A stretch of 64,000 nt of DNA from Candidatus Palauibacter sp. (GCF_965221685.1 NZ_OZ244907.1), one strand, 5' to 3'; counted from the stretch's first letter, positions 30,882 through 48,676 are shown. Made by a program: numbers and translations. Notes: generated from the sequence alone by a model not told the origin.

Positions 30882-32294
30882 GTGGGTCGCGCCACGGTTG
30901 TCCTCCACGGCCATTTCTACCAGCCGCCGCGGGAGGACCCGTGGACGGACCGGGTCCGTCGCGAGCCGAGTGCGGCTCCGTTCGAGAACTGGAACGAACG
31001 AATCGCGTCGGAATGCTACGAACCTCTGGCGCGGGCGGGGGCGTTCGACTGGCTGAGCTTCGACCTCGGCCCGACGCTCGCGCGCTGGCTCGAGGGGGAG
31101 CACCCCGACATCCACGAGCGCTTCGTCGGCGGGGACCGGGCGAGCCGCGATCGGCTGGGGCACGGCAACGCGGTCGCGCAGCCTTACCACCACATCATCC
31201 TTCCGCTCGCCTCCCGCCACGAGAAGGAAACGGAGGTGCGCTGGGGTCTCCGGGACTTCGAGCGGCGCTTCGGGCGGTGCGCCGAGGGCATGTGGCTCCC
31301 GGAGACGGCCGTCGACATGGCCACGCTCGAAGTGCTGGCGGCGGAGGGCGTGGCCTTCACGATCCTGGCCCCGCACCAGGTCGCGGACGCCCCGGACGGA
31401 GGCATCGGGCGGGTCCGCCTCGGTGAGGGCCGGGAGATCGCGGTCTTCATCTACGACGGCGAGCTCTCGCACGGCGTGGCGTTCGGGGCTCTGCTCGACG
31501 GCCGCGACGCGTGGTTCGAGGCGCTGCGGTCGGCCGCGGGCCGCGGGGTTCCCCTCGTGGCGCTGGCGACGGATGGCGAGACGTTCGGACACCACCACGG
31601 GGGCGCTGACCGCGCGCTAATGCAGGTGATCTCCCGCGCCCGCCGGAGCGGAGACGTGAAGATCGGGAACTTCGCCTCGGCGCTCGCGGCCGCGGGCGAA
31701 GTGCCGTTCGTGACTCTGAAGGAGCCCACTTCCTGGAGCTGCGCACATGGCGTGGAGCGCTGGCGCTCGGCGTGCGGGTGCCGGATGGCGCCTCACCTGG
31801 ATTCACAGCAGCACTGGCGGAGGCCGCTTCGCGAGGCGTTCGAGACGCTCGCCGCGAGCCTGGACGAGGCTTTCGCGATCCTCGCGCCGGGCCGGTTGTC
31901 GGAGCCCCGGCAGGCGCTGGCCGCCCTGGGAGGCGCCCTCGGCGACCCTGCGGGGCTGGAGGGTTTTGCGGCCCGGGTCGCCCGCGAAGGCCGCCGGGAC
32001 GACGTGTTGTCCCTCCTCGAACTCGCCCGCGACCGGGCGGCGATGTTCACCTCATGCGCCTGGTTCTTTGACGATGTGGCGGGGATCGAGGCCACGCAGG
32101 TGCTCGCCTACGCCGCGCACGCCATCGACCGCCTGCGTCGGCTCTCACCGGAGCGCGCGGAGGCATCGGAGGCCGCCTTCATCGCGGATCTCGCGAAGGC
32201 CCCGGCCAATGACGCCGATCTCGCGAACGCCGCGGTCGCGTACGAGCGCGCGTTCAGATCGGGGGCCGGCGTCCGCATCCCGGCGGACGCGTGA
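30882..32294 (+). CDS. GH57-related protein (DUF3536-type)
   Basis: N-terminus VVLHGHFYQPPREDPW and GH57-like catalytic region (MWLPETAV ... ATDGETFGHHH). GTG 30882 start; no ATG nearby. Confidence 0.6.
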   Translation: MGRATVVLHGHFYQPPREDPWTDRVRREPSAAPFENWNERIASECYEPLARAGAFDWLSFDLGPTLARWLEGEHPDIHERFVGGDRASRDRLGHGNAVAQPYHHIILPLASRHEKETEVRWGLRDFERRFGRCAEGMWLPETAVDMATLEVLAAEGVAFTILAPHQVADAPDGGIGRVRLGEGREIAVFIYDGELSHGVAFGALLDGRDAWFEALRSAAGRGVPLVALATDGETFGHHHGGADRALMQVISRARRSGDVKIGNFASALAAAGEVPFVTLKEPTSWSCAHGVERWRSACGCRMAPHLDSQQHWRRPLREAFETLAASLDEAFAILAPGRLSEPRQALAALGGALGDPAGLEGFAARVAREGRRDDVLSLLELARDRAAMFTSCAWFFDDVAGIEATQVLAYAAHAIDRLRRLSPERAEASEAAFIADLAKAPANDADLANAAVAYERAFRSGAGVRIPADA

Positions 32295-34282
32295 GTCGAG
32301 GCTCGCTCCGTTTTGCGTTCGCGATTCACCTTCACCAGCCGGTGGGGAACTTCGACCATGTGTTCGAGGACCACCTGACGGGGGTGTACCGGCCCCTCCT
32401 CGATGCGCTCCACGCACACGGCACATACCCGATCACGCTCCACGTCTCGGGTCCCCTCCTCGACTGGCTCGAGCGCCACGCGCCCGACTTCCTCGACGAT
32501 CTCGGGGCACGGGCCGGGCGCGGCCAGATCGAGTTCCTCGCCTCCGGACGCTACGAGCCCATCCTCGCGGCGCTCCCGGCGGCGGACCGAGTGGAGCAGA
32601 TCGAATGGATGCGGACGGATCTCCGCAGCCGGTTCGGCGTCGAGGCTACCGGCCTCTGGCTCACGGAACGCGTCTGGGAACCCGATCTCGCTGCCGATCT
32701 GGCACGCGCGGGCATCGAACACACGCTCCTCGATGACCGTCACTTCCTCGCCTGCGGACTCGAGCGCGAGGAGCTGGACGGCGTCTTCACGACGGAGAGC
32801 GGCGGGAAGCGGATCCGCCTCCTTCCGATCGACGAACGGCTTCGGTACCTGATCCCTTTCCGGCCCGCGAACGAGATCGTGGAGTTCTTCGGCGACGAGC
32901 GTCGGGCAGGTCGCGGTCAACTCGTGCTCGGCGACGACGGCGAGAAATTCGGCGGCTGGCCGGACACCCGCGAGTGGGTGCACGGCGGCTGGCTGGACGC
33001 GTTCCTCGATGCGCTGAACGCGGGGCGCGAGCGGGGTGAGCTGGAGTTGGTCACGACCCGCGAGGCAGCCTCCGGACCGAACCGCGGGCTCGTCTATCCC
33101 GCGACGGGCGCATACCGCGAGATGGAGGAATGGACCCTCCCCCGATCCGCCGCGCGGCGCCTGGCGCGGCTTGTCGTCACGGCACCCGGCCGAGACGGCG
33201 ACGATCCGCTGATGCGCGGCGGACACTGGAAGGGTTTCCTGCGTCGATACCCCGAGTCGAACCGCATGCACAAGACGGCGCTCCGGCTCTCCGCGACATG
33301 CCGGGACCGCGGCAACCCCGCCGCGGCCCGCCGCGCCATCGCGCGGGCACAGTGCAACGATGCGTATTGGCACGGAGTCTTCGGCGGGGTCTACCTTCCA
33401 CACCTGCGCCGGGCGATCTGGCGCGAACTCGCCGCGGCCGAGGAGCGGCTGCGCGAGGGAGAAGGCATCGCGTTCGAGATTCTCGACTTCGATTTGGACG
33501 GCCATGACGAGATCTGGATCCATTCGGCCCGGAGTTCCGTCGTGATCAGCCCCGCACGCGGGGGCGCGGCCGAGATTCTCACGGTCTTCCGGGACGGCGT
33601 GAACTACGTCGACGTCCTCTCCCGCCGCCTCGAGGCTTACCACCGGGACCCCTCGGAGTCCGGCGCGACGCATGTGAGAGACGGAGGGGCGACCCCCGGG
33701 GCGCGAACCCGGAGCGACGGCGTCGCCTCGGTCCACGACCGGGAATCCGAAGCCCCGGCCGCCCCCGCTCCGGACGGCGCCCCTCTGGCCTTGCTGCAGG
33801 AGATCGCCCTCGAACCGCCCGGCAGCCCGGGAATACCGGAACGGTCCATCGTCGTGGATTGGCGGACGCACCCGTTCCGGCTCGCCCGCGTGCCGAATCT
33901 GGAGCCCGGCTCCGCGTCCGGCCGGATCCGTCTCCACCTCGAGTCCGAACCGGGTCTCCCCCGCCTCGAGAAGACGCTCGACGTTCACGTCGATGGGAGG
34001 ATCGAGGCGACGCTGGACTGGAGCGCGGCCGAGATCCCCGCGGACAGCCGGATCGTCACCCGGCTGCCGCTCGCGCACCCCATGAGGATCGAGACCATGG
34101 CGTCCGGGGGCGCACCGAGGGAGTCGCGCACGCGGATCGTCACGCTGGCCAGGTCCGAACGGGGCTTCGAGGAGATCGACCAGGGGGACCTCGTCGAACT
34201 CGCGTGGCCTGCGGAGGTCCGGAGGGCGCATGTCAGCCTGGCGCCGGACGTCGGCCCCGGTGGGGCCGGAGGTCCGGAATGA
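32291..34282 (+). CDS. GH57-family 4-alpha-glucanotransferase / alpha-amylase-like protein
   Basis: FAIHLHQPVGNF ... GQIEFLASGRYEPIL ... WLTERVWEP ... GDDGEKFGGWP. GTGA overlap with the upstream gene. Confidence 0.7.
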   Translation: MSRGSLRFAFAIHLHQPVGNFDHVFEDHLTGVYRPLLDALHAHGTYPITLHVSGPLLDWLERHAPDFLDDLGARAGRGQIEFLASGRYEPILAALPAADRVEQIEWMRTDLRSRFGVEATGLWLTERVWEPDLAADLARAGIEHTLLDDRHFLACGLEREELDGVFTTESGGKRIRLLPIDERLRYLIPFRPANEIVEFFGDERRAGRGQLVLGDDGEKFGGWPDTREWVHGGWLDAFLDALNAGRERGELELVTTREAASGPNRGLVYPATGAYREMEEWTLPRSAARRLARLVVTAPGRDGDDPLMRGGHWKGFLRRYPESNRMHKTALRLSATCRDRGNPAAARRAIARAQCNDAYWHGVFGGVYLPHLRRAIWRELAAAEERLREGEGIAFEILDFDLDGHDEIWIHSARSSVVISPARGGAAEILTVFRDGVNYVDVLSRRLEAYHRDPSESGATHVRDGGATPGARTRSDGVASVHDRESEAPAAPAPDGAPLALLQEIALEPPGSPGIPERSIVVDWRTHPFRLARVPNLEPGSASGRIRLHLESEPGLPRLEKTLDVHVDGRIEATLDWSAAEIPADSRIVTRLPLAHPMRIETMASGGAPRESRTRIVTLARSERGFEEIDQGDLVELAWPAEVRRAHVSLAPDVGPGGAGGPE

Positions 34283-35664
34283 ACCGGCGGCGACGGAGCG
34301 ATCCGCGGCGGTTCGTCCTCCTGGCCGTCCTGGCCGCCGCCTGCGGAGAAGCCGAGACCGTGGCGCCGGCCGAGACGGGACCGGCATCCATCGTCGTCCT
34401 TGCGGGCGCGGATCAGCGCGGAGTTCCCGCGCGCCCCCCGGCCGAGGCCATCACCGTTCGGGTTCTCGACGCCGAGGGACGTCCGGTCGGCGGCAGCACC
34501 GTCACCTTCCAGCCGGAGCCCGGTCACGGAAGCGCGGATCCGGCTTCGACCGTCGCGGACGCCGGCGGCGAGGCGGCGACGACGTGGACGCTCGGGGCCA
34601 CTCCGGGGCCCCAGCGCCTCGCGGTTGCGGCCGGTCGGGCCGGCGCCACGGTTCGCGCCGAGGCGATCGATCTCGATGCCGAACTCGATGCGCTGTTCGC
34701 TCCCCCGTCGGCGGCGGAGATCGAAGCCGTGCGAGTCGACTGGGCGCAACGTGACATATCAGCGGCCGAGGTCTCGGTCGAACTGACCGAGGAGATGGCG
34801 TTCGGCGAGTCGACCGCTACGCTGCGAATCGTCTCCCACGTCGTGGCGGGCGCCCGCCACTTCGGCGCCATCATCGTGCCGGACGGCGCGGCGCCCGAAA
34901 CGCTGCCGCTCCTGATGTACTCTCACGGCGGCGATGGCGGGGTATCGGTCGACGACATCGAGATCGTGGCGCTGGCCCTCGGGGAGCGGAGCCGTCGCTT
35001 CGTATACGTGATCCCGTCGTTCCGCAGCGAACCGCTGCGATACGAGGGCCGGAGCTGGGTGTCGGAGGGTCCCTCGGGTCACTGGGACTACGACGTCGAC
35101 GATGCGCTGGCGCTCGCGAATGTCGCGTTCGAGACGACGCCGGAAGCCAGGCCCGACGCCATCCACATTATCGGCGGCAGTCGGGGGGCCGGCGTCGCCC
35201 TGCTCGCGGGAGCGCGCGACGAGCGGGTGGAGCGGATCGTGGCGTTCTTCGGGCCGACGGACTTCTTCGATGACTGGATCAGGGTCATCGCCTGGAAGAC
35301 CGCGCTCGACGGCCCCTGGGATCTGCCCGGGCTCATCCACCTCGACTCCACCGTCGTGCAGCCGCTGGTCCGGGGCACGCTCTCCTCCTCCGAGGCGCGT
35401 CTCGAGCTCGTGCGCCGATCCGCCGTCCTCTTCGCCGCCGACCTTCCCGCCGTCCAGGTGCATCACGGCACCGCGGACTTCGTCGTGCCCGTGAGCCAGG
35501 CGGAGTCGCTGATGCGAACGATGGCGGCTCTCGGCCGCACGCCTCCCGACTTCGAGGCGTTCCTCTACGAGGGAGGCGGGCACGATTTCCTCGCCCTGCC
35601 CGGAGCCATTCCCCGGGCGGTCGAGTTCATGTCGGAGGCACTGCAGCCGAAAGGAAACCCGTAA
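34279..35664 (+). CDS. Lipoprotein with Ig-like N-terminal domain and alpha/beta-hydrolase (S9/dienelactone-hydrolase-like) C-terminal domain
   Basis: Lipobox LAAAC after MNRRRRSDPRRFVLLAV. Ig-like beta-rich region. IIGGSRGAGV nucleophile elbow and a late HHGTADFVVP His block. ATGA overlap with the upstream GH57 gene. Confidence 0.6.
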   Translation: MNRRRRSDPRRFVLLAVLAAACGEAETVAPAETGPASIVVLAGADQRGVPARPPAEAITVRVLDAEGRPVGGSTVTFQPEPGHGSADPASTVADAGGEAATTWTLGATPGPQRLAVAAGRAGATVRAEAIDLDAELDALFAPPSAAEIEAVRVDWAQRDISAAEVSVELTEEMAFGESTATLRIVSHVVAGARHFGAIIVPDGAAPETLPLLMYSHGGDGGVSVDDIEIVALALGERSRRFVYVIPSFRSEPLRYEGRSWVSEGPSGHWDYDVDDALALANVAFETTPEARPDAIHIIGGSRGAGVALLAGARDERVERIVAFFGPTDFFDDWIRVIAWKTALDGPWDLPGLIHLDSTVVQPLVRGTLSSSEARLELVRRSAVLFAADLPAVQVHHGTADFVVPVSQAESLMRTMAALGRTPPDFEAFLYEGGGHDFLALPGAIPRAVEFMSEALQPKGNP

Positions 35665-35666
35665 GG

Positions 35667-36164
35667 ATGAGAACCCGGATCGCCCACACCATCGAGATCT
35701 TCGAAGCCGCGCGTAAACCTCTGTTCACCGTGCTCGACGGGATCTCGCGCGAGGATCTCGACTGGCAGCCCGCGGAAGGGATGCGCGGGATCGGGAAGAT
35801 CTGCCGCCACATGTACCGCGTGGACGTCTGGTTCCTGAAACAACTCGGCATCACGCCCGTGATCGCAGAAGATGGTCCGGGTCCGGCCAAGGAGATCGCG
35901 GCGCGCATGAAAACGATTCAGGGTCAGATCGTATCCGAAGTGGACGCGTGCGGGAGCGACGCGGATCTCGTCGCCGAGCGTACCTCTCCGGATGGAAAGA
36001 TGACCCTCAGGCTGGGGGCAACCGTCATCCATATCGCGCAGCATTATCTGTACCACCTCGCGCAGATCACGTACCTGCGCCGCATCCGCGACCCGGAGTG
36101 GTCCGCGCCGCTGGACGAGTGGGAGACCGCCACCCACATCATCGAGGACCGGATTCTGGAATAG
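35667..36164 (+). CDS. DinB/YfiT-like (DinB_2) four-helix-bundle metal-dependent hydrolase family protein
   Basis: Conserved His pattern (CRHMYRVDVWFL ... HIAQHYLYHLAQI), 165 aa. Confidence 0.65.
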   Translation: MRTRIAHTIEIFEAARKPLFTVLDGISREDLDWQPAEGMRGIGKICRHMYRVDVWFLKQLGITPVIAEDGPGPAKEIAARMKTIQGQIVSEVDACGSDADLVAERTSPDGKMTLRLGATVIHIAQHYLYHLAQITYLRRIRDPEWSAPLDEWETATHIIEDRILE

Positions 36165-36203: not shown

Positions 36204-37109
36204 ATGTCCGTCATACCACAGAGACCCCTGGGGTTCGGCGAGATACTGGATGGCGCCATCCAGTTCTACCGACGCGACTTCGGACTCTACTTCCTCATCG
36301 CCCTCGTGGGCGCCCTCCCGGGGTACGCCATGCTGCTCGCCCTCGGGACGCCCGGCACGGGCCTCGACCCCTCGGGCGCGCCGGCGGTCGGCGAACTCGG
36401 ATTCGACATGGCGATCGTGTTCCCGGCGGCGGCCCTCTCGTGGGTGGGGACGCTCGCGGTCGCCGTCGCCATGGCCGCCCGTCTGGAGGGGGGTTCGGCT
36501 TCGCTCGAGAGCGCGTACCGCGGAGCGCTCCGCCCCTTCCCGAGCGCGGCCGGCGGGCACCTGCTCGCCCTGCTGATCGCGGTCATCGCGGGTCTGGTCA
36601 TCATGGTCCCGGTCATGGTCGCGGGTGCCGCCGCGATCGCGACCCTGGACAGTTTCATCGCGGGGATGACCGTCTTCGGGCTCACGGGCCTCGCGGCCGC
36701 GCTCGTCGTACTGGCGATCTGGTTCCGCACCTCGTTCGCGGTCTTCCCGGCCGTGCTCCTGGAGGGGCGTAACGCCGCGGAGGCGGTGCGCCGCTCGCTC
36801 AAGCTCGGGAAGGGGGCCTGGCTACGGATCCTCGGGGTCATGCTCGTCGCCTCCATCATCCGCGATGGTCCCTCCTTCGGCATCTTCGCGCTCTTCGGAG
36901 GGTTCGAGATGTTCACGTCGCCCACGACGGCGGGCACGCTGAGTCCCGGTCTTCAGGCCGTACAGAACACCCTGAACCTGCTGATCGGATCGTTCACCAA
37001 ACCTTTCCTCGTGGCGACCGTGTTTCTCCTCTATCACGATCGGCGGGTGCGTCTGGAAGCCGCTGACCTGGAGACGGCCGCGGCGGCGATGGCAACGGAC
37101 GAAGGGTGA
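36204..37109 (+). CDS. Multi-pass membrane protein, first gene of the DUF4129/DUF4350/MoxR/DUF58 module
   Basis: 6-7 hydrophobic helices. GGGAGG SD before ATG 36204. Confidence 0.55.
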   Translation: MSVIPQRPLGFGEILDGAIQFYRRDFGLYFLIALVGALPGYAMLLALGTPGTGLDPSGAPAVGELGFDMAIVFPAAALSWVGTLAVAVAMAARLEGGSASLESAYRGALRPFPSAAGGHLLALLIAVIAGLVIMVPVMVAGAAAIATLDSFIAGMTVFGLTGLAAALVVLAIWFRTSFAVFPAVLLEGRNAAEAVRRSLKLGKGAWLRILGVMLVASIIRDGPSFGIFALFGGFEMFTSPTTAGTLSPGLQAVQNTLNLLIGSFTKPFLVATVFLLYHDRRVRLEAADLETAAAAMATDEG

Positions 37110-37798
37110 CTCGACTCGCCGATCGTGCGGTCCTTCCAGCCGGGCAGGAGCCGTCGCCCGCCGGCGAACCCCTCCCTTTGCCGGACGAGATGTCCGCTGC
37201 GTGGCGGGAGATCCTCGCCGATCCCGAGTTCGTCTCCCCTCTCCTTCCGGCGCGACGGCGGATCTTCGAATGGATCGCCAATACGCTCTCCGACGCGTGG
37301 GATTGGCTGCGGCGATTCCTGTTCGAAGAGGGCGGCGGGCTCATGGAGGTGATGGCCGTCCTCGTGGTCCTGGCCGCGCTCGTCGCGCTGGGGGCGGTGG
37401 CCCTGCGTCACGGGCCGCGGTGGGTGCACAGGGTGCGGGGGACGGGGGACGAGGGGCCGGAGGACGACGGCGCGCCCGTTTCGGCGCGCGAATGGTTGGT
37501 CCTTGCCCGGACGCGCGCGGGTGAGGGAGAGTACCGACCTGCGGCGAGCGCGATGTATCAGGGTTTCCTCCTCACCCTCGACAGAAAGGGCTCGGTGGCG
37601 TTTCACCCGTCGAAGACGCCCGGCGACTACGCCCTCGAGATGGAAACCAGCGCCGGCCGCAACTTCATCCGTCATTTCCAGGGATTTTCCTTCGGTCAGG
37701 AGACGCCCACCCCCGCCGGCTATGCGGCCCTGGAGGATCTCGCGCGTGACGCGGGGTGTCCGACACCCGCATCCAGCGAGGAGGCCGAGTCATCGTGA
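37106..37798 (+). CDS. DUF4129 domain protein
   Basis: One TM helix, then REWLVLARTRAGEGEYRPAASAMYQGFLLTLDRKG...FHPSKTPGDYA, the DUF4129 signature. GTGA overlap upstream. Confidence 0.6.
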   Translation: MTRLADRAVLPAGQEPSPAGEPLPLPDEMSAAWREILADPEFVSPLLPARRRIFEWIANTLSDAWDWLRRFLFEEGGGLMEVMAVLVVLAALVALGAVALRHGPRWVHRVRGTGDEGPEDDGAPVSAREWLVLARTRAGEGEYRPAASAMYQGFLLTLDRKGSVAFHPSKTPGDYALEMETSAGRNFIRHFQGFSFGQETPTPAGYAALEDLARDAGCPTPASSEEAESS

Positions 37799-39009
37799 GC
37801 GGAGTCCGCAGGTTCAGGACGTTCGCGTGGATCGGGGCGATCGCGCTGGGGGCGGGACTCGCCGCGTACCTCGCCCGCCCCGCGGGACGCACGGCGCTCG
37901 ACGTGAAGCGGAGTTCCTTCCGGACGACGCCGGACGGAGTGGCCGCGTTCGACCGGGGGCTCGAACGATTCGGCCGCCCGACCGCGCCCCGCTTCACACC
38001 GCTGGCCGATGCCGATCCGGTTCCGGGGGCGCTCGTGCTGCTCTCGCCCGCCGTCGTCCCGAGCCCGGTGGAGGTACACGCTCTCCTGGAGCGGGTGCGC
38101 CGCGGCGGCACCCTCGTCTACGCGCCGCGACTGTCTCCGGCGATCGCAAGCACGCTACGGATCACGCCGCTGATGGATTCCCTGGGCATCGCGTTCCGCG
38201 TGCCCCGGCCCGGCGACCTGGAAGATCCGGAGTGGGCGGCCCACTCGCTGACTGACGGCCTGCCGGAGCCGGCGGCTCCGCGCCGCGCGCTCCGCCGCAT
38301 GACGTCCCGTGAACTCGGCGAGCGATCCGTTCCTCCCGTGCAATTGCTGCTCACGGTGGGGAGAGATCCGGACCGGAGATGGACGGGCGCCGGGCTCATG
38401 CCCTTCGGGGAGGGGCACATGATCGTCCTCAGCGATGCCGAGCCGCTCTCGAACGGCCGCATCGCCGACGATCCCCTGGCATTCGTCGTCATGCGGGCCG
38501 TGCTCACGCACACGACGCCGGCCGACACGATCTTCTTCGCCGAGTTCCACCAGGGCATCCGTGGCTACGAGAGCACGGCGCGGCGCTGGGCGGGCTTCGT
38601 CTTCGGCACGGCGCGGGGGCAGACTCTCCTCCAACTCCTCCTCGCCGCGTTTCTCGCGCTCGCGTGCGCAGGGCTGCGCTTCGGCACTCCGACGACGGCC
38701 GCGGCGCCGCGGGACCTCGAGCGAAGGTCTCCGCTCGAACACGTCTCGGCCCTCGGCGACCTGTACGAGAAGGCGCGAGCCCGGCGGACCGCCGCCCTCC
38801 TCCTCCTGGCGCGACTGGCCCGGAGCGTTCGGCGCCCTCCACCGAGGGACGTTGCCGAGGCCCGGGCTCTGATCCGCGAGCTGCAGGCCCGGCGGGGAGA
38901 GCAGCCCGCTCTGGCCCGGATCCAACGCGGCTTGCGCGCCGAACCGGTGGACCTGACGATGGTCGCCGCCGGAATCGACGACCACCTCGGACGAAGGGCG
39001 AAGTCATGA
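37795..39009 (+). CDS. DUF4350 domain protein (membrane-anchored)
   Basis: N-terminal TM helix, periplasmic domain, second TM helix ([17 protein letters not shown]), C-terminal helical tail. Genomic position between DUF4129 and MoxR. GTGA overlap upstream. Confidence 0.55.
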
Positions 39010-39953
39010 CGACGCACGACGCGGCGCTGCGTCTGCTGGGCGACATCGAGAAGGTGATCCTGGGCCAGGAGACCGTCCTCCGACAGCTGATGATCACCCT
39101 CCTCGCCCGTGGCCATGCTCTGCTCGAGGGCGTGCCGGGGACGGCCAAGACGCTCTCCGTCCGTGCCCTCGGCCGCGGGCTTGGGCTCGACTTCGGCCGC
39201 GTCCAGTTCACCCCCGATCTCATGCCCACGGATCTCGTCGGCGTGAGCGTGCTGGACGAGACCCAGCGGAACTTCCGCTACCGGCCCGGTCCCGTGTTCA
39301 CCGACCTCCTCCTGGCCGATGAGATCAACCGCGCGCCGCCCAAGACCCAGGCGGCGCTGCTGGAGGCGATGGAGGAGCGCCAGGTCACCGTCGACGGCGC
39401 CACGCGGGCCCTGCCCGCGCCGTTCACGGTCTTCGCGACCCAGAATCCGGTCGAATACGAGGGGACCTATCCGCTCCCGGAGGCGCAGGTCGACCGCTTC
39501 CTGATGAAGATCGTGATCGACTATCCGCCGGAGGAGGCGGAGCGGGCGATTCTCGACCGCCACGAGGGGGGGTTCCGGGCGGACGACGAGACGACGTATC
39601 CGATGGGCAAGCCGCTGACGCGCGAGGCGCTCCTTGCGGCGCGGGACGCGGTGGACGGCGTTCACATGGACGAGAGGGTCCGGCGCTATGTAACCGGGAT
39701 CGTGCGGGCGACCCGGGACGACCAGGCCTTCGCGCTGGGGGCGAGCCCCCGCGCGGGCGTGGCCCTCTTCCAGGCCGCGAGAGCAGAGGCGTTTCTGCAC
39801 GGCCGGGACTTTGTGACGCCGGACGACGTGAAGTCGCTCTCGTTCCCCGTGCTGCGGCATCGCGTCGTGTTGACCGCCGAGGCGGAGGTCGAAGGACGTT
39901 CTTCGGACGACGAACTGCGGGCGCTCCTCGAGACGCTGGAGGCGCCCCGATAA
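39006..39953 (+). CDS. MoxR-family AAA+ ATPase
   Basis: Walker A GVPGTAKT, Walker [11 protein letters not shown], sensor/arginine finger and C-terminal lid ([17 protein letters not shown]). ATGA overlap with DUF4350. Confidence 0.9.
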
Positions 39954-39964
39954 TCCGCGTCGCG

Positions 39965-41272
39965 GTGGTCCCCGGCGGGCGGACCCTGTGGCTGCTGGGG
40001 CTGACCTCGTTCGTCTTCCTGTTTTCGGCGGCGGGCGCCCTGGCGGCGGACGCCGTCATCCTCCTCCTGGCCTGGATCGACGGTCGGCGGACGCGGCCTC
40101 CGTCGGTCTCCCGCACGGTGCCGCGCATCGCCGCGCTCGGCGAGATCACAGAGGTCGGCCTCGACGTGGTCAACCCGACGAACCGGCGGCTCTCCGTCCT
40201 CCTCACCGACGACCTCGATCCCTCCCTCCGCCGGGTCCCCGGGCGCGACGGGAACGAAGCGTGGGAGAGGGGCGTGCGGCTGGAGATCCCCCCCGCTTCC
40301 GTCGTGCACACCCGCTACAGGATGCGGCCGCGCACGCGCGGATTCCTCGCCATGGGCGCGACTCACCTGCGCACCCGCTCGCCGTGGGGGTTCGCGTGGC
40401 GGCGTTCCACCGTGGACGCGGCGCACACGCTGCAGGTGCAACCCGGGATCCGGAGCCTGTTGCGGGACCGCAGCGGCCACGCGCTCCGGCGCGGCCTCCG
40501 CACGGCCGGCTCTCGCCGCAGCCGGCAGTGGGGCGACGGCCGCGAGTTCGAAAGTCTGCGCGACTACGCCGAGGGGGATGACCCCCGCATCGTCGACTGG
40601 AAGGCGTCGGCGAGACGCCAGCGCTTCGTCGTCCGCAACTACGAAGCGGAACGCAGCCAGAACGTCGTCCTCGCGATCGACGCGGGCCGCCACATGCGCG
40701 AGCGGCTGGGCGATCGGGAACGGGTGGATTTTGCCCTGGCGGCGGGCATGATGCTCGCCAACCGCGCGCAGAGCTTCGGGGACCACGTCGGAACCGTGGT
40801 GTTCGACGACGAGATCCGGCATCTGTCGCCGCCCCGTCGATCCGATCCGGCGGCGCTCGCCCGGATCTTCGCCGGCGTGGAGACCCGGCCGGTCGAGCCC
40901 AACTACCCGCTCGCGCTCGCTACGTTGAGCCGGACGTTCCGGAAGCGGTCGCTCGTCATCCTCTTCTGCGACGTGATCGACGAGGCCGTCTCGAAGGCGC
41001 TCGTGACCTCGCTGGCCCGGATCGGGCGGGCACACCTCCCGCTGGCCGTCGCCATCCGCAACCCGGCCCTCGAGGTGGCCGCGACGCAGCCCGCCGCGGA
41101 TGAGGCCGCGGTCTTTCATCGCGCCGCCGCGGAGGAACTCGTGCAGTCGCGCGCCACGACGCTTCAGGTCATGCGCCAGTCGGGAATCCTCGTCGTGGAC
41201 ACCCCGCCCGGCGACGCGCTCGTGCGCACGCTGGACAAGTACGTCGAGATCAAGGAGCGGGGACTGCTCTGA
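39965..41272 (+). CDS. DUF58 (vWA-like) domain protein, MoxR partner
   Basis: N-terminal TM helices, then GDGREFESLRDYAEGDDPRIVDWKASAR and VLAIDAGRHM (vWA/MIDAS-like). Confidence 0.75.
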   Translation: MVPGGRTLWLLGLTSFVFLFSAAGALAADAVILLLAWIDGRRTRPPSVSRTVPRIAALGEITEVGLDVVNPTNRRLSVLLTDDLDPSLRRVPGRDGNEAWERGVRLEIPPASVVHTRYRMRPRTRGFLAMGATHLRTRSPWGFAWRRSTVDAAHTLQVQPGIRSLLRDRSGHALRRGLRTAGSRRSRQWGDGREFESLRDYAEGDDPRIVDWKASARRQRFVVRNYEAERSQNVVLAIDAGRHMRERLGDRERVDFALAAGMMLANRAQSFGDHVGTVVFDDEIRHLSPPRRSDPAALARIFAGVETRPVEPNYPLALATLSRTFRKRSLVILFCDVIDEAVSKALVTSLARIGRAHLPLAVAIRNPALEVAATQPAADEAAVFHRAAAEELVQSRATTLQVMRQSGILVVDTPPGDALVRTLDKYVEIKERGLL

Positions 41273-43010
41273 CCTTTCCGCGGCGGGCGTCGTCGGAACC
41301 CCGCCCGGCGAGACCGAAGTACGCCGTGAGCAGGAGCGCGGTGGCGCCGCCGAAGGCGAATTTCGCCGTCGCCGGAAGTCCGGAGGGGGAATAGAACCCC
41401 TCCACGAGACCCGCCACGATCAGCAGGAGCACGGCCCCGCCGACGAGCGAGAGGAAGGCGCGGCCCCGCTCCCTCAACGCTTCGCGACGGGTGCGCCGTC
41501 CGGGTACGAGCAGCGCCGAGCCGAGCCCCAGCCCCGCCCCGCCGGCCAGGCAGATGGCGGTGAGTTCCATGACGCCGTGCGGGAAAACGAAAGCGAGAAT
41601 CACGCCGAGAACGCCGTTGTTCGCATACAGCCCGAACGCGGCCCCCAGCAGGACGCCGTTGAAGATGAGGATCAGCACCGTGCCCGCGCCGGCGAGCAAC
41701 CCGGCCGCGAAAGCGACGAAACTCACCTGCACGTTGTTCGTCACGATCGCCGAGGAGAAGGCCGGCCGCTCGGCGCCGTCCACAGCGATGTAGGAAGCGT
41801 TGATGTCCCCGCGGGCGGTGTTCTCGGCTCTCGCCAGCATCCCCGCCGGCATGATCGCACGCGCACGCGCCGGACTCTCCCGGACCGCTGCGTACGAGGC
41901 CAGCATGGGACCGAAGAGAAGCAGAGCCGCCAGGAGCACCGGCCAGCGATGGCGCCGCACCGCCCGCGGCAGTTCGCGGCCGATCCAGCGGCCGAGGGGG
42001 ACCGCCGCCCTTCCCTTTGCACGGTACAGGAGGTTGTGGCCGGCCCCCGCCCACCGTTCCACCGCCTCCAGCAGCCCCGGTGAGGCGCCGTAGGTTCGCG
42101 CGCGCGCCAGGTCCGCCGTCACGCCGCGGTAGAGGCGCCCGAACGCGCGCACCTCCGCCTCGCTGAACCGGTCCAGCCCGGCCGCGCGCCCCTTCTCCAC
42201 GAGGTCCGTGTAGGCGCCCCACGCCTCGCGCCGCTCGCGCGCCATCGTCGCGGCCTGGAGGCTCGGCCCGCCCTGGCGCGCCGCATGCCTTGGAGCCTCT
42301 TCCTCGTGCAGGCGAACGAGGTGCGTGTCGGGAGCCGCCTCGGGGTCCAGACTGCCCCGGCCCGCCGCCGGTCGCACCGCATCCCGGACCGAGGCGGCGA
42401 CGCGGCTCCGGACGTCCGGCTCCAGTTCCTCCCGGCGGGCGACGTAACCCGCCAGCAGCGCGAACTGCTCGGCGGAGAGGCGCGGGCGCCCCGCTCGGCC
42501 GGCCGTCCGCGGTTCGTCCCCGAACAGCTCACCGCCCCCCGTGTCCCGGACGACGATCGTGCCGGCGACCAGGTCTCCGAGGCGCTGCGCCCGGCGGTTG
42601 AACAGGATCGACGCGGCCCCGGCCATCCCCGTCAGCGCCGGCTGCAGATCCACGATCCGGATCAGGTTGCGGAGCACGGCCCCCTGGAAGGAGAGCGGCT
42701 CCCCGCCGTCGTGCAGCACTCGCAGCCCCACCGCGCGTTTCCCCGGCGTGCGCCCGTCCCACACCGCTTCAAAGAAGAGGAAATACCCCCACACGGCGAA
42801 GAAGCCGACGATGTAGAGCACGGCCTGCCCCAACCCGCCCGTGTACCGGAAGACGAGCGCCACGAGCAGAATCGCGGCCACGATGATGGCCAGATCGAGG
42901 GCGAGGGCGGCCGCGCGCGAACCCAGATCCGCGAGCTGGTACTCGAGTTTGACGTGCTCCGGCGTCTCCAGCGCGATCCGGCGGTGCAGCCCCGCCCTCG
43001 TGTCGGCCAT
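41250..43010 (-). CDS. Fusion protein: N-terminal RDD-family membrane domain plus C-terminal stage II sporulation protein M (SpoIIM/DUF95)-like membrane domain
   Basis: Single uninterrupted 586-aa ORF. Residues 1-150 have the RDD architecture (…RAAALALDLAIIVAAILLVALVF ... GKRAVGLRV ... RLGDLVAGTIVV). Residues ~260-586 have SpoIIM-like topology (LYRAKGRAAVPLGRWIGRELP, 5-6 TM helices). Converges on DUF58 with a 23-bp overlap. Confidence 0.65.
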   Translation of the reverse strand: MADTRAGLHRRIALETPEHVKLEYQLADLGSRAAALALDLAIIVAAILLVALVFRYTGGLGQAVLYIVGFFAVWGYFLFFEAVWDGRTPGKRAVGLRVLHDGGEPLSFQGAVLRNLIRIVDLQPALTGMAGAASILFNRRAQRLGDLVAGTIVVRDTGGGELFGDEPRTAGRAGRPRLSAEQFALLAGYVARREELEPDVRSRVAASVRDAVRPAAGRGSLDPEAAPDTHLVRLHEEEAPRHAARQGGPSLQAATMARERREAWGAYTDLVEKGRAAGLDRFSEAEVRAFGRLYRGVTADLARARTYGASPGLLEAVERWAGAGHNLLYRAKGRAAVPLGRWIGRELPRAVRRHRWPVLLAALLLFGPMLASYAAVRESPARARAIMPAGMLARAENTARGDINASYIAVDGAERPAFSSAIVTNNVQVSFVAFAAGLLAGAGTVLILIFNGVLLGAAFGLYANNGVLGVILAFVFPHGVMELTAICLAGGAGLGLGSALLVPGRRTRREALRERGRAFLSLVGGAVLLLIVAGLVEGFYSPSGLPATAKFAFGGATALLLTAYFGLAGRGSDDARRGKVRAVPAP

Positions 43011-43056
43011 CAGCCAAGGCTATCCGCAGATCCCCCGTGCGCAAGCCGTCGCCGTG

Positions 43057-43890
43057 CTAGAGGTCCCGGCGGCGGAACAGGATGAAGGCGATGCCGACGA
43101 GGAGCGCCGTCCAGGCGGCGGCGGCGGCGAGGTGCCACGTGAGATCTAGCGGCGGGGAAGGCGTCCGGCCCGCCGCTTCGACGGCGGCGGCGTAGCGCTC
43201 GTAGGCCGGCGCGTCGTAGTTGCGGAACTCCAGGAGCGGGAAGCCGTTCGTGAACGGCAGGTACTCGAGCCAGCCGGCCTGGTCCGGAAGGAAACGGCGG
43301 ACGAGCGCGGGCAGCATCCCGGACTCGATCGGGCCGATCCAGAGGAACCATACGGCCAGCGCGGCTCCGGTCCGACGGATGACGAGCGACAGCAGGAACG
43401 CGAGCGCGGCCACGCTCAGAAACGCCAGCCCGAGCCCTCCGGCCGCCTGAAGGACGGACAGCGGCACGAGCGACCCCTCGGCGGCGGCGAAGTCGGTCCG
43501 AATCAGCGCAAGCAGCGTCGGGATCGCCACGTGGACGCCGATGAAGGCGAGCCCCACGACGGGCAGCAGGAGCGACTTGCCCCAGAACCACTGGGACTTG
43601 GAGAGGCCGTCGATCACGTTCTGCCGCGCGGTCCGCCAGCCGAACTCCGTCGCGGACAGCAACACGAGCGTGAGAGCGGCGAAGATCACGACCATGGTGG
43701 ATTCGTCCCCGAACACGGCGGTCCAGATGTCGGGGAGCCGGAAGCCCTCGCTGCGCTCGAGGAACGGCTGGCCGTGGTTCATGAGCGTGAAGAACGCGTA
43801 GAAGCCGAGGGCGACCCAGAAGGCGACCCGCTTCCTCGCCTTGAACCACTCGTTGCGCAGCAGCACGCCGAACGCCCGCGCGCCCTTCAT
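43057..43890 (-). CDS. ABC-2-type transporter permease
   Basis: 6 TM helices. ATGA overlap with the ATPase gene upstream. Confidence 0.6.
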   Translation of the reverse strand: MKGARAFGVLLRNEWFKARKRVAFWVALGFYAFFTLMNHGQPFLERSEGFRLPDIWTAVFGDESTMVVIFAALTLVLLSATEFGWRTARQNVIDGLSKSQWFWGKSLLLPVVGLAFIGVHVAIPTLLALIRTDFAAAEGSLVPLSVLQAAGGLGLAFLSVAALAFLLSLVIRRTGAALAVWFLWIGPIESGMLPALVRRFLPDQAGWLEYLPFTNGFPLLEFRNYDAPAYERYAAAVEAAGRTPSPPLDLTWHLAAAAAWTALLVGIAFILFRRRDL

Positions 43891-44822
43891 TGGATCTCTC
43901 CGAATCCCTCGGGCGTGCCCGTGATCTCCATGAAGGCGTCCTCCAGCGATTGCCGTTCCAGCGACAGGTGTGAGGCGTAGATCCCGCGCCCGGCGAGGAA
44001 GCGGTTCAGTTCGGAGAGCCCGGCGCCTCCGACCTGCACCAGGACGCGGTCGTCCTCGACCCGCGCATGGCCCGCGCCCTCGAACTCCGACACGGCCTGC
44101 CGAAGCGCCTCGATGTCCCCGTCGGCGGCCACCGCGGCCACCGTTCGGGCGGAGGTGAGTTCGTCCACGCTCCCCTCGCGGACGAGACGGCCGGTCTCGA
44201 TGATCGCGACGTGCGTGCAGGTGCGCTCGACCTCGTGCAGCATGTGGCTCGAAAGGAAGATCGTCTTCCCGCGGCTGGCGAGTTCGCGAATGATGTCGCG
44301 GATCTCCCGCTGCCCCGCCGGATCGAGCCCGTTGGCCGGTTCATCGAGGATGATGAGTTCCGGATCGCCGATCATCGTCGCCGCCAGGGCGAGTCGCTGC
44401 TTCATGCCCAGCGAGCACGCCTTGAACTTCGTCTTCCGGCGCGAGGTCAGGCCCACGATTTCGAGCACCTCGGCGATGTCCGCCTCGTCGCTCCCCTTCA
44501 CCCGGGCCACAACCCGCAGGTTGTCCCGGCAACTCAGGTAGGGGTAGAAGTTGGGATACTCGAGCGTGGCGCCGATCCGCTGGCGCGCGGCGTGCAGCTC
44601 GCCGGGCGTTTCCCCGCCGAACAGTCGGAAGGAACCGCCCGTCGGGTTGATGATCCCGAGGAGCATCCCGATCGTCGTCGTTTTGCCGCTTCCGTTCGGC
44701 CCCAGGAAACCGTACACCTGCTCGGCTTCCACCTGGACGGAAAGCTCGTCCACGGCTAGCGTCCCTGCTCCGCGCAACGCCGCGTATCGCTTGGACAGTC
44801 CTTCGGTCTCGATGATCGTCAT
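43887..44822 (-). CDS. ABC transporter ATP-binding protein
   Basis: Walker A GPNGSGKTT, signature LSLGMKQRL, Walker B LIILDEP, H-loop. Confidence 0.9.
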   Translation of the reverse strand: MTIIETEGLSKRYAALRGAGTLAVDELSVQVEAEQVYGFLGPNGSGKTTTIGMLLGIINPTGGSFRLFGGETPGELHAARQRIGATLEYPNFYPYLSCRDNLRVVARVKGSDEADIAEVLEIVGLTSRRKTKFKACSLGMKQRLALAATMIGDPELIILDEPANGLDPAGQREIRDIIRELASRGKTIFLSSHMLHEVERTCTHVAIIETGRLVREGSVDELTSARTVAAVAADGDIEALRQAVSEFEGAGHARVEDDRVLVQVGGAGLSELNRFLAGRGIYASHLSLERQSLEDAFMEITGTPEGFGEIQ

Positions 44823-45220: not shown

Positions 45221-47284
45221 CTAGCGGGGAGGCCGGCGGCCGAGAATGCCCCGGCCCCACACGTTGTTCCCGCGGTTCACGTCCGGCAGCACGCCGTCCG
45301 GGTCGATCTGGACGTTGCGCACGAACCCGCCGGACACGTTCAGCACGTAGGTGCCGTCCGCCTCCCACGCCTCCACCGGAACCTCGTGTCGCTGCTCTTC
45401 CCCGTCCTGGTAGAGGATCCGCACCTCGAGCGGCATCGGGATGCCTCCACGATTCTCGAACACGACCCGCGTCGTATCCCCCAGGCGCGTCACGGAGGCG
45501 ATCGCCTGGTCGAGGATCGCGTCCTCGTAGATCCAGCCCCTGAAGAACCAGTCGAGATCCTGCCCCGACACGTCCTCCATCGTGCGGATGAAATCGGCGG
45601 GTTGCGGGTGCTTGTACGCCCAGCGCCGGATGTATTCCCGGAAGCCCTCGTCGAACGTTTCGGGCCCGAGCACCTCCTCGCGCAGGAGGACGAGCACCGC
45701 GGCCGGCTTGTTGTAGGCGAGAACCCCGATGTCCGTTTCCGGAATGCTGTCGGCCGGCGTGTACACGGCGTGGCTCGGGAGGCGCGTGTCCGTCGCGATC
45801 TGGGCCGGGGACATGAGTTGGCCCAGGATCGGCTCCCCGCCCGCGAATTCGATGCCCGAATAGTAGTTGATGAAGGTGTTGAACCCCTCATCCATCCACG
45901 CGTACCGCCGCTCGTCCGACCCCACGATCATCGGGAACCACGTATGCCCGATCTCGTGGTCCGTGACGGAGAAGAGGAAGGCGCCGCGGGACCGCCAGGA
46001 ACAGAAGACGATCATGGGATATTCCATCCCGAGCGCGAGGCCGGCCACATTGATGGCGACGGGATACGGATAGCGAAGCCACTGTTCCGAATAGTACCGG
46101 ACACTGTGGCGGAGATACTCCGTGGAGCGCTCCCAGCCGCTGGATCCGGGTCGGCCGAGGCTCTCCTCGGGGTAGACGGACATGATGAGGACGTCCTCCC
46201 AGCCGGCGGCGTCCCAGACGAAGCGGTCGGATGCGGCCCACGCGAAGTCGCGCACGTTCTCCGCGCGGAAGCGCCATATGAGCGGGGTCTCGCCGGGGGG
46301 CCGCGTGTGATCCGCGCCGGCTTCGTCCGGCCCAATGATGTAGACCGTCTCCTCGGAGAGGCGCGCCTCCGCGAGCCGTTCGCGCTGCATCGGCGTGAGG
46401 ACCTGCTCGGGATTGAGGAGTTCTCCCGTGGCGACGACGACGAAGTCCCGCGGGACGGTGAGTTCGACGTCGAAATCGCCGTACTCCAGGTACCACTCGC
46501 CCTGCCCCAGGAAGGGGGACTGGTTCCACCCGTTGACGTCGTCGTACGTGAAGACGCGCGGATACCACTGCGCGAGCTGATAGATGATCCCGCCCCGGAT
46601 GTCGAGTTGCCCCATGCGGTCGCCGCCCGTCTCCGGGATCTCGAAGGCGAAATCGATCTCGACTTCCACCTGGCTTCCGCCGGGAGGGAGGGGTTCGCCG
46701 AGGAGGATCTCCATCATCGTGTCCTCGGTCCGGTACTCGGGGACCGTCATCTCGCCCTCGAGGTCGGCGCGCACACCCGAGATCACGAAACCGCCGTCCC
46801 TGAAGAAACCGCCGTGGCGGACATCCCCGCCGAGTTCCTCCGCTCTCTGCGCCCCGTAGCTGGTTTCCCGGAAGAGATTCTGGTCGAGCTGCACCCAGAG
46901 ACTCGTGAGGGAATCGGGACTGTTGTTCGTGTAGGTGATGCGTTCCGTGCCCTCGATGCGACCGTCGTCGAGCGTGGCCCGGATGTGGTAGTCGGCCCGC
47001 TGCTGCCAGTAGGCTTCGCCGGGGGCGCCGGCGCCATCCCGAAACTCGTCGGGCTCGGGGAGGTCGAGGGGCGCGAAGGCGCCCGCCGGATCGAAGATCC
47101 TGCGCAGGGAATCGCGGCGCGCGAGTTCGGCCGCCTCCGCCGCCTCCCGTTCTTCCCGTTCCTCTTCCTGCGCCGCCAGCCCGCCGTACGGTAACGGATG
47201 GAACAGCTGCGGCAGAACCGGCGTGAGTACCGCGAGCAGCATCACGACGGAAAACGTGCGTCCCCCCCGGACAATCGCCCTCAT
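45221..47284 (-). CDS. M1-family zinc metallopeptidase (aminopeptidase N-like), secreted
   Basis: Signal peptide, then the HEIGHTWF ... WMDEGF gluzincin motif (HExxH-18-E). Confidence 0.85.
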   Translation of the reverse strand: MRAIVRGGRTFSVVMLLAVLTPVLPQLFHPLPYGGLAAQEEEREEREAAEAAELARRDSLRRIFDPAGAFAPLDLPEPDEFRDGAGAPGEAYWQQRADYHIRATLDDGRIEGTERITYTNNSPDSLTSLWVQLDQNLFRETSYGAQRAEELGGDVRHGGFFRDGGFVISGVRADLEGEMTVPEYRTEDTMMEILLGEPLPPGGSQVEVEIDFAFEIPETGGDRMGQLDIRGGIIYQLAQWYPRVFTYDDVNGWNQSPFLGQGEWYLEYGDFDVELTVPRDFVVVATGELLNPEQVLTPMQRERLAEARLSEETVYIIGPDEAGADHTRPPGETPLIWRFRAENVRDFAWAASDRFVWDAAGWEDVLIMSVYPEESLGRPGSSGWERSTEYLRHSVRYYSEQWLRYPYPVAINVAGLALGMEYPMIVFCSWRSRGAFLFSVTDHEIGHTWFPMIVGSDERRYAWMDEGFNTFINYYSGIEFAGGEPILGQLMSPAQIATDTRLPSHAVYTPADSIPETDIGVLAYNKPAAVLVLLREEVLGPETFDEGFREYIRRWAYKHPQPADFIRTMEDVSGQDLDWFFRGWIYEDAILDQAIASVTRLGDTTRVVFENRGGIPMPLEVRILYQDGEEQRHEVPVEAWEADGTYVLNVSGGFVRNVQIDPDGVLPDVNRGNNVWGRGILGRRPPR

Positions 47285-47336
47285 CGAATCTCCCGGTTCC
47301 GTGCTGCGTCCATCACCACGTTCATTGTCCGTTCGT

Positions 47337-48596: not shown

Positions 48597-48676
48597 CGGG
48601 CACCTGTTCGTAATGTTGGATCATCTGTCCCACGCGGGAGCGCAGCGCAGCTTCAAGATAAGCGAGAGGTGTCGAC

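Follow-up and report, generated by a model that had tools for sequence, protein, structure and literature searches.

A 64,000-nucleotide stretch of DNA from Candidatus Palauibacter sp. (GCF_965221685.1 NZ_OZ244907.1; hereafter the window) encodes, at positions 36204-43010, a membrane module with a MoxR-family AAA+ ATPase and a DUF58 protein, together with a convergent gene in which an RDD domain and a SpoIIM-like domain are joined in one polypeptide chain. Comparison across bacteria argues strongly that RDD and SpoIIM-like proteins operate as a single physical unit, because the fusion is fixed across a whole phylum, probably arose independently elsewhere, and is matched in other bacteria by tandem genes that abut translationally. 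This locus belongs to the MRP-type MoxR/DUF58 operons and, more narrowly, to a module of seven families whose best-known example is mycobacterial. Few bacterial operons without a known function are conserved as widely as the MoxR–DUF58 membrane module. The genes, the parts of the fusion protein and the convergent overlap are located as follows (aa, amino acids; nt, nucleotides):

36204-37109, plus strand: G1, 301-aa polytopic membrane protein, DUF7847/GPDPase_memb-like
37106-37798, plus strand: G2, 230-aa protein with a single transmembrane (TM) segment and DUF4129 at the C-terminus
37795-39009, plus strand: G3, 404-aa DUF4350 protein, GTG start
39006-39953, plus strand: G4, 315-aa MoxR-family AAA+ ATPase
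39965-41272, plus strand: G5, 435-aa DUF58 protein
41250-43010, minus strand: G6, 586-aa RDD–DUF8413–SpoIIM fusion protein
42561-42932, minus strand: RDD domain of G6 (aa 27-150, Pfam)
42261-42503, minus strand: helical cytoplasmic extension of G6 (aa 170-250)
41976-42254, minus strand: helical cytoplasmic domain of G6 (aa 253-345)
41385-41885, minus strand: SpoIIM/DUF95 membrane domain of G6 (aa 376-542, Pfam)
41250-41272: convergent 3'-end overlap of G5 and G6, 23 nt

An earlier sequence-only reading of the window had described G6 as a single 586-aa open reading frame (ORF) that converges on the module and combines RDD with SpoIIM, and both the ORF and the Pfam searches bear this out. The RDD domain (PF06271) scored 72.1 bits against a cutoff of 24.1 and covered profile positions 2-137 of 137 (E 7.5e-20), and the C-terminal half, as predicted, was recognised as SpoIIM (PF01944) with 121.1 bits against a cutoff of 26.9 over profile positions 17-163 of 163 (E 5.8e-35). 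DUF8413 (PF28475), a recent Pfam entry located between RDD and SpoIIM, is tentatively assigned to G6 through the precomputed annotation of 83-94%-identical homologues and of P0006, a 91%-identical protein used in place of the exact G6 product, for which no database record was found. The joint, guessed earlier to lie near ~42250-42400, falls at about aa 250-253 (nt ~42252-42263). On one side of it, aa 170-250 correspond to the C-terminal tail of the RDD protein in species with split genes and diverge fast; on the other, aa 253-345 correspond to the N-terminus of the ~340-aa SpoIIM-like protein of such species, with W264, R295 and Y329 conserved.

An assembly artefact is excluded for the fusion, and the broader suspicion that an assembly, frameshift or annotation error in the window created the joined ORF is so improbable as to be negligible. 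Frames were checked in 80 species-representative loci from a genome scan seeded by a 15-sequence alignment (compared loci are cited by L number). A single uninterrupted ORF, as claimed earlier for the window, was present in about 50 Gemmatimonadota loci from independent assemblies, including several single-contig chromosomes of 3-5 Mb, and every Gemmatimonadota locus with both halves was fused except L059. In this locus, from a Gemmatimonadaceae metagenome-assembled genome (9665-11922), the RDD and SpoIIM halves lie in different frames; it nests among fused relatives in the tree and represents either a frameshift error of that genome or a secondary fission. Apart from L059, nothing was found that would support an artefact. 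Conservation of the linker at the protein level argues against one, as does the outcome of a search of a 5.8-billion-protein collection with G6: the best 120 of the 1027 hits (516-622 aa) all carried PF06271, PF28475 and PF01944. The named sources among these 120 were Gemmatimonadota or Candidatus Palauibacter, which the NCBI taxonomy places in Gemmatimonadota (order Ca. Palauibacterales), and the NCBI label was 'stage II sporulation protein M'. Synteny is shared by a 4.0-Mb contig that carries a 91%-identical orthologue, and the closest species representatives were Ca. Palauibacter rhopaloidicola and Ca. P. ramosifaciens (89-90% identity).

The fused architecture is common. A HMMER scan of 1.84 billion 50%-identity representatives returned 15,329 hits at E ≤ 1e-3 and 675 at E ≤ 1e-30, and the best 150 cluster representatives were classified by the four parts of G6. 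An RDD core and SpoIIM occurred in one chain in 94 of them (median about 600 aa), and 42 were standalone proteins of ~340 aa matching G6 aa 253-586. Since these standalone proteins include the segment aa 253-345, SpoIIM-like proteins of the module type natively have it as their cytoplasmic N-terminus. The taxonomy of the distant fused representatives was taken from the genome scan (a look-up of ten named just Gemmatimonadales), and the fused form was found in at least two phyla besides Gemmatimonadota (Planctomycetaceae, L051; Spirochaetaceae, L053/L054). The rarity implied by the sequence-only reading was thus overstated: by this comparison the fused state is fixed throughout Gemmatimonadota from the ancestor onward, and the architecture is already catalogued, with hundreds of database copies and a DUF entry of its own (DUF8413). 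A full-text literature search returned nothing that discusses an RDD–SpoIIM fusion. The value of the finding is confirmatory and organisational; it does not reveal the function, concerns an architecture already on record, and will not surprise the specialist.

The same reading held that RDD and SpoIIM genes are usually separate neighbours, which stands outside Gemmatimonadota and fails within the phylum, where they are fused. Genes in tandem, abutting on the same strand, were found in Proteobacteria, Verrucomicrobiota and Planctomycetota. In Verrucomicrobiota (L049, L070), a betaproteobacterium (L057) and Gammaproteobacteria (L062-L064, L067) the tandem genes share a frame and are divided by a lone stop codon, and in several Planctomycetota and in L081 the frames differ. 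Divergent RDD and SpoIIM genes were found in Chloroflexota (L065, L077, L080), Melainabacteria (L074), Vulcanimicrobiota (L076, L079) and Verrucomicrobiia (L078), and for each of the three states (fused, tandem, divergent) Pfam verified both domains as genuine in sample loci. In a crude neighbour-joining tree of the SpoIIM halves, unbootstrapped and with no support values, the Gemmatimonadota fusions form one clade with the planctomycete L051 as sister, and those of Spirochaetaceae cluster with a verrucomicrobial gene of the tandem type. This branching tentatively points to a single ancient fusion event in Gemmatimonadota and, in Spirochaetaceae, to at least one further event of independent origin. 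The fusion arose most simply from an abutting tandem arrangement of the proteobacterial or verrucomicrobial type, since a stop codon is all that divides the in-frame genes in several cases. The Rosetta-stone argument of the sequence-only reading, that the fusion supports a functional linkage, is sound.

The fusion also sets the relative topology of the two proteins. It connects the C-terminus of RDD with the N-terminus of the SpoIIM-like protein, both of them cytoplasmic, which constrains structural and biochemical models. The AlphaFold2 (AF2) model of G6 is all-helical and comprises an RDD membrane domain, a helical linker (aa 180-350) and a six-helix SpoIIM domain, the latter with a per-residue confidence (pLDDT) of 80-94. 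Across 150 diverse representatives, R32, D39, E81, K91, R114, D121, R143 and D146 of the RDD half are near-invariant (≥92-100%), and R32, D39, R114, D121, R143 and D146 reach ≥97% over about 100 RDD-containing representatives. In the SpoIIM half, N426, N451, H478, E482 and E537 are ≥96% conserved over the 150 representatives and lie inside or beside predicted helices of the membrane domain. These conserved polar clusters suggest a candidate ligand, ion or catalytic site, not a passive scaffold. Published work on RDD describes a conserved intramembrane site facing the cytoplasm (PMC12419801).

The link between the RDD and SpoIIM-like pair and the MoxR operon survives gene rearrangement. Flanks of 5 kb or more on each side were available for 38 loci; of these, 34 had MoxR within 5.3 kb (median 1.5 kb) and 33 had DUF58 nearby. 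The fusion or its split counterparts are tail-to-tail with DUF58 in the window, Longimicrobiales, Verrucomicrobiia and Vulcanimicrobiota; in many Gemmatimonadales they meet the G1 end of the operon head-to-head, and they are fully co-directional with the module in Spirochaetaceae and the verrucomicrobial L049. In the window all seven families (DUF7847-like, DUF4129, DUF4350, MoxR, DUF58, SpoIIM-like and RDD) are contiguous, with RDD and SpoIIM-like in one gene, and the seven-family module also occurs in Verrucomicrobiota, Chloroflexota, Planctomycetota, Gammaproteobacteria and mycobacteria. The cultured gammaproteobacterium Terasakiispira papahanaumokuakeensis (L067, 9974-16799) encodes it as one co-directional operon with overlapping genes in the order RDD, SpoIIM, a 525-aa protein, DUF4350, MoxR and DUF58. 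The 525-aa protein has a C-terminal DUF4129 (25.4 bits, over the cutoff) and a G1-like membrane part, the latter weak (the 'Y..RR..LE' motif of the last TM segment is all that aligns, E 0.003). If real, this would be a possible second Rosetta-stone fusion in the module, of G1 with G2.

The composition of the operon, which the sequence-only reading gave as membrane protein, DUF4129, DUF4350, MoxR and DUF58, is confirmed by Pfam, with G1 below threshold (DUF7847, E 1e-4, and GPDPase_memb); an 89%-identical orthologue of G1 has a recorded DUF7847 match. Topologies of G1-G5 were assigned by crude hydropathy and the positive-inside rule. G1 has about six hydrophobic segments and is the positional counterpart of mycobacterial Rv3689, and genes of its type are present in the module of Gemmatimonadota, Planctomycetota (L072), Verrucomicrobiia (L078) and Chloroflexota (L080). 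G2 consists of one TM segment, an Arg-rich stretch and a C-terminal DUF4129 (26.6 bits, over the Pfam cutoff), which is probably cytoplasmic because the Arg-rich stretch follows the TM segment. G3 has an N-terminal signal-anchor, a predicted periplasmic DUF4350 (E 4e-15, Pfam), a second TM segment and a basic C-terminal tail of ~105 aa; DUF4350 is described as a GldG-like extracytoplasmic domain with a flavodoxin fold (PMC5898192). Its GTG start at 37795 is preceded by GAGGAGG, with an alternative GTG at 37756, and the 37795 start is supported by an orthologue called at 403 aa. NCBIfam gave no name for any membrane protein of the locus.

G4 matched AAA_3 (E 2e-62, 209 bits) and AAA_lid_2 (E 5e-24, 84 bits) in Pfam, its translation shows intact Walker A (GVPGTAKT) and Walker B (LLADE) motifs, and it aligned with the MoxR crystal structure PDB 2R44 at E 2.8e-78. 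With these two domains and a DUF58 gene 11 nt downstream, it falls in the MRP subfamily. G5 matched DUF58 (E 1e-26, 94 bits), with VWA_2 exactly at its cutoff. In its AF2 model (mean pLDDT 78, about 85-90 over aa 233-430), a TM hairpin at the N-terminus is followed by an MG/Ig-like beta-sandwich and by a domain that, as modelled, has the von Willebrand factor A (vWA) fold. In Foldseek the vWA domain gave TM-scores, on the target, of 0.68 with the Rpn10 vWA, 0.65 with vWF A1 and 0.62 with the CLCA1 VWA (E ~1e-5 to 1e-6), and the beta-sandwich resembled complement MG domains (E 3e-7) and TRAP-beta (E about 1e-6 to 1e-7). PDB sequence searches with the DUF58 and DUF4350 proteins returned no matches. 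The canonical DxSxS of the metal ion-dependent adhesion site (MIDAS) is missing in G5 and is replaced by D239-A-G-R-H-M (40664-40681, G5 aa 234-239 region); D-x-G-R-x-M is kept in the DUF58 of all 50 module loci inspected. The best-conserved signature of DUF58, WG.GREFESLRDY..GDD.R.IDWKASAR (aa ~188-217), lies inside a segment that AlphaFold leaves disordered (aa 167-229, pLDDT <50) and is possibly an interaction motif that folds upon contact with a partner. The basic residues RRTR after the TM hairpin suggest that the soluble domains of G5 are cytoplasmic and able to meet MoxR.

We lean towards a model in which an RDD–SpoIIM inner-membrane complex is remodelled by MoxR/DUF58 in envelope biogenesis, the present locus being the Gemmatimonadota copy of a widespread module. 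MoxR–vWA pairs such as RavA–ViaA, NorQ–NorD and CbbQ–CbbO are ATP-driven remodellers or maturases of specific partner complexes. By analogy, RDD–SpoIIM would form the polytopic inner-membrane core, with a conserved polar cluster in each half, and DUF4350 would supply a GldG-like periplasmic arm. DUF4129, the DUF4350 tail and the G6 linker would together make up a cytoplasmic platform, on which the membrane-tethered, vWA-fold DUF58 would recruit a MoxR hexamer that spends ATP to assemble, remodel or gate the complex. The physiological role would likely be in cell-envelope biogenesis or division. Such a role is suggested by the mycobacterial system, since Rv3694c and Rv3695 were both recovered with the divisome-associated Rv0954 (PMC8093794) and Rv3689-Rv3695 are co-regulated as a block (PMC8191103). 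SpoIIM homologues have also been reported to adjoin genes for vWA proteins and COG0714 ATPases (PMC5898192).

Several observations weigh against this model. In 4 of the 38 well-flanked loci, RDD and SpoIIM (fused or split) occur with no MoxR or DUF58 nearby (L012 and L015, Longimicrobiales; L065, Chloroflexia; L074, Melainabacteria), and the core may thus be encoded apart from the ATPase pair or function in its absence. The proposed mechanism is extrapolated from architecture, from rules of topology and from the behaviour of other MoxR–vWA pairs, the topologies from the hydropathy and positive-inside assignments given above, and the tentative count of fusion events depends on the unbootstrapped tree. 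G6 gave no significant PDB sequence match and no significant Foldseek fold match (best E 0.12, TM about 0.1), and its model is of moderate confidence (pLDDT 73.6, pTM 0.61). As the vWA domain of DUF58 lacks the MIDAS serines, the metal-dependent binding of classical vWA adaptors may not apply to it. To our knowledge, no biochemical activity has been demonstrated for any component of the module.

The same parts could be arranged as an envelope-signal switch, in which MoxR–vWA is an ATP-dependent thresholding or signalling device, with DUF4350 sensing in the periplasm and RDD–SpoIIM responding as effector in the membrane (a gated channel, for example, or a unit that handles lipids), as modelled on ternary conflict systems and the actinobacterial Esr pathway. 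In Actinobacteria, experiments have connected MoxR–vWA pairs with signalling and the sensing of threats (bioRxiv 10.64898/2026.09.08.750141), DUF4350 is the one clear extracytoplasmic domain of the module, and G4 has a secondary match to the bpMoxR model (E 1.4e-10). However, AAA_3 far outscores bpMoxR on G4, and the invariant gene set across phyla, with largely vertical clustering, looks housekeeping and not conflict-driven. Domain annotation of the locus turned up neither beta-propeller, kinase, phosphatase or FHA genes nor any toxin/effector gene, and PADLOC returned 0 hits for all six locus proteins. We therefore consider a signal switch unlikely, and on the same two grounds, the empty PADLOC result and the absence of sensor and effector domains in the locus, a reading as a defence system, including the MoxR–vWA–beta-propeller ternary conflict system, was rejected. 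Slightly less probable still is a novel secretion system with RDD–SpoIIM as the membrane conduit, as envisaged for archaeal DUF4350–MoxR–vWA neighbourhoods. Makarova, Galperin and Koonin (2015) predicted that DUF4350, MoxR and vWA proteins form a secretion or membrane-remodelling complex (PMC5898192). DUF4350 is related to GldG of the ABC transporter associated with gliding and type IX secretion, and genes for an ABC ATPase and an ABC-2 permease lie 46 nt upstream of G6 on its strand. These ABC genes are kept among close Palauibacter relatives only, no cargo, S-layer or Ig-repeat surface proteins were found beside the bacterial module, and the beta-sandwich and vWA domain of DUF58 are predicted to be cytoplasmic here (TM hairpin, then RRTR), whereas the archaeal proteins are assumed to be secreted.

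Catalysis by the SpoIIM/DUF95 domain itself would give MoxR/DUF58 a different task, namely to deliver or unfold a membrane or envelope protein substrate for an intramembrane peptidase or transpeptidase. DUF95 is essential in circular-bacteriocin clusters, where it has been linked to removal of the leader and is proposed to perform both cleavage and circularisation (PMC13463998), and the strict conservation of the five polar residues of the SpoIIM half (N426 to E537) would suit an active site. We nevertheless regard this as a doubtful explanation, on a par with secretion: no biochemical proof of DUF95 catalysis is cited, a precursor-peptide gene is not evident in the locus, Foldseek of G6 showed no similarity to known intramembrane proteases or transporters, and SpoIIM of Bacillus subtilis is regarded as a scaffold (PMC5898192). 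A bolder proposal, which we hold to be a long shot of about the same standing as the signal switch, is that RDD and SpoIIM/DUF95 form a single intramembrane machine whose conserved polar residues would be the catalytic or translocation site for a lipid-linked or peptide envelope substrate, switched by a MoxR–DUF58 motor with a MIDAS-less vWA. If true, the series of fused, tandem and divergent forms over at least eight phyla would represent a universal, unrecognised ATP-regulated envelope enzyme system.

The five plus-strand genes of the locus are closely coupled, as the sequence-only reading had stated. Three of the four junctions are overlaps (G1/G2, GTGA; G2/G3, GTGA; G3/G4, ATGA), and the fourth, between G4 and G5, is an 11-nt gap. 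A scan of the locus for sigma-70 promoters and terminators gave nothing above chance, and the operon boundaries are therefore drawn from gene spacing alone; with no terminator found between G5 and G6, the two transcription units must collide. The 23-nt overlap of G5 with G6 recurs at identical length between DUF58 and the fusion or SpoIIM-like gene in L001-L003, L006, L007, L010, L014, L023, L029, L035, L039, L060, L073 and L081, and spans both Gemmatimonadota orders, Brocadiaceae and Verrucomicrobiota. The recurrent length is mechanical: DUF58 proteins end in a conserved E-[I/L]-K-x-R-G-x-L, whose NTC-AAG codons, read in antisense, give the opposing gene an in-frame TGA. For the C-terminal 'PAP' of G6, a role as a functional motif was rejected, as it is the antisense of the conserved G5 I-K-E-R-G codons (PAP being the antisense of K-E-R-G). 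The G+C content of the window is ~70%, and the many long antisense ORFs around the locus are high-GC artefacts.

Upstream of G6, 43057-44822 on the minus strand encode the ABC ATPase (311 aa) and ABC-2-type permease (277 aa) in mutually overlapping genes, and G6 may be co-transcribed with them. The pairing is kept only in close Palauibacter relatives (L001-L003, L006), for which reason the transporter was rejected as a member of the module. An ABC-2 neighbour recalls the resemblance of DUF4350 to GldG, an accessory protein of an ABC-2 transporter, but the pattern of conservation argues for coincidence. An insertion of 1.2-1.4 kb separates the permease and fusion genes in L001 (8644-10000) and L002 (8836-10000), and is absent from the window (43011-43056) and L003; in L001 it contains two called ORFs (81 and 340 aa) with no Pfam matches. 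The flanking genes are ordinary and syntenic with L001. On the left, 32291-36164 (plus strand) encode a GH57 alpha-amylase/glucanotransferase, a 461-aa Ig-like plus alpha/beta-hydrolase protein and a DinB-family protein, whose gene lies 40 nt upstream of G1, and on the right, 45221-48620 (minus strand) encode an M1 peptidase and a DUF418 membrane protein. The locus had been put forward as a good entry point for studying the module, a suggestion that does not hold up: its source is an uncultured, sponge-associated Candidatus Palauibacter relative, a poor choice next to cultured carriers such as, probably, Gemmatimonas for the fused form, or mycobacteria and Terasakiispira for the split form.

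Membership of the MRP subfamily has been assigned by DUF58 adjacency, a criterion attributed to Snider & Houry and quoted in PMC12067865. With the MRP MoxR of known structure (PDB 2R44), G4 has in common AAA_3 and AAA_lid_2, the Walker motifs and the adjacent DUF58. Classical MRP/Bat operons contain additional vWA proteins (BatA/B) and TPR proteins. In contrast to these, the module of the window has DUF4350, DUF4129, DUF7847-like and RDD/SpoIIM membrane proteins, and its DUF58 has DxGRxM. The C-terminal domain of G6 belongs to the same Pfam family, SpoIIM/DUF95, as SpoIIM of the B. subtilis DMP engulfment machinery, but the module-type proteins add a cytoplasmic N-terminal domain of ~95 aa (aa 253-345) and have MoxR/DUF58, not SpoIID/SpoIIP, as partners; neither SpoIID nor SpoIIP was found among the annotated neighbours within the 64-kb window. 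Moreover, we know of no endospore formation in Gemmatimonadota. For these three reasons G6 is not to be equated with the sporulation protein, the shared name denoting a family and not a function (PMC5898192). The DUF95 proteins of circular-bacteriocin clusters, compared at the family level, are likewise polytopic members of this Pfam family and are thought to act on a membrane substrate, but their context consists of a precursor peptide, an immunity protein and an ABC transporter, with no RDD, MoxR or DUF58.

The N-terminus of G6 matches the RDD family over its full length, with the conserved Arg and Asp residues, and fusion of RDD to another integral-membrane domain, such as VanZ, is a recurring theme (PMC12419801). 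In the VanZ–RDD fusions the partner is the lipocone VanZ, whereas in G6 it is SpoIIM/DUF95. The archaeal arCOG01314 system shares with the window the trio of DUF4350, MoxR and a protein combining Ig-like and vWA domains; its neighbourhoods add S-layer and Ig-domain surface proteins and are devoid of the RDD/SpoIIM/DUF4129 set. The closest counterpart is the mycobacterial moxR2 locus, Rv3689–Rv3695, equivalent to MAB_0386c–MAB_0392c of M. abscessus, which encodes the same families of membrane protein, DUF4350, MoxR, DUF58, SpoIIM-like and RDD; this comparison is drawn from published annotation tables and the analogous divergent loci L065 and L074-L080. Split genes are recorded for M. chelonae, M. 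abscessus and M. tuberculosis, with RDD as MAB_0386c/Rv3695 and the SpoIIM-like protein as MAB_0387/Rv3694c (PMC8191103). To judge by which locus tags end in 'c', M. abscessus apparently has its SpoIIM-like gene on the strand opposite DUF58, as in the window. The mycobacterial RDD and SpoIIM-like proteins are encoded by separate genes, apparently divergent and on opposite strands by the same suffixes, whereas the window unites them in one ORF of 586 aa.

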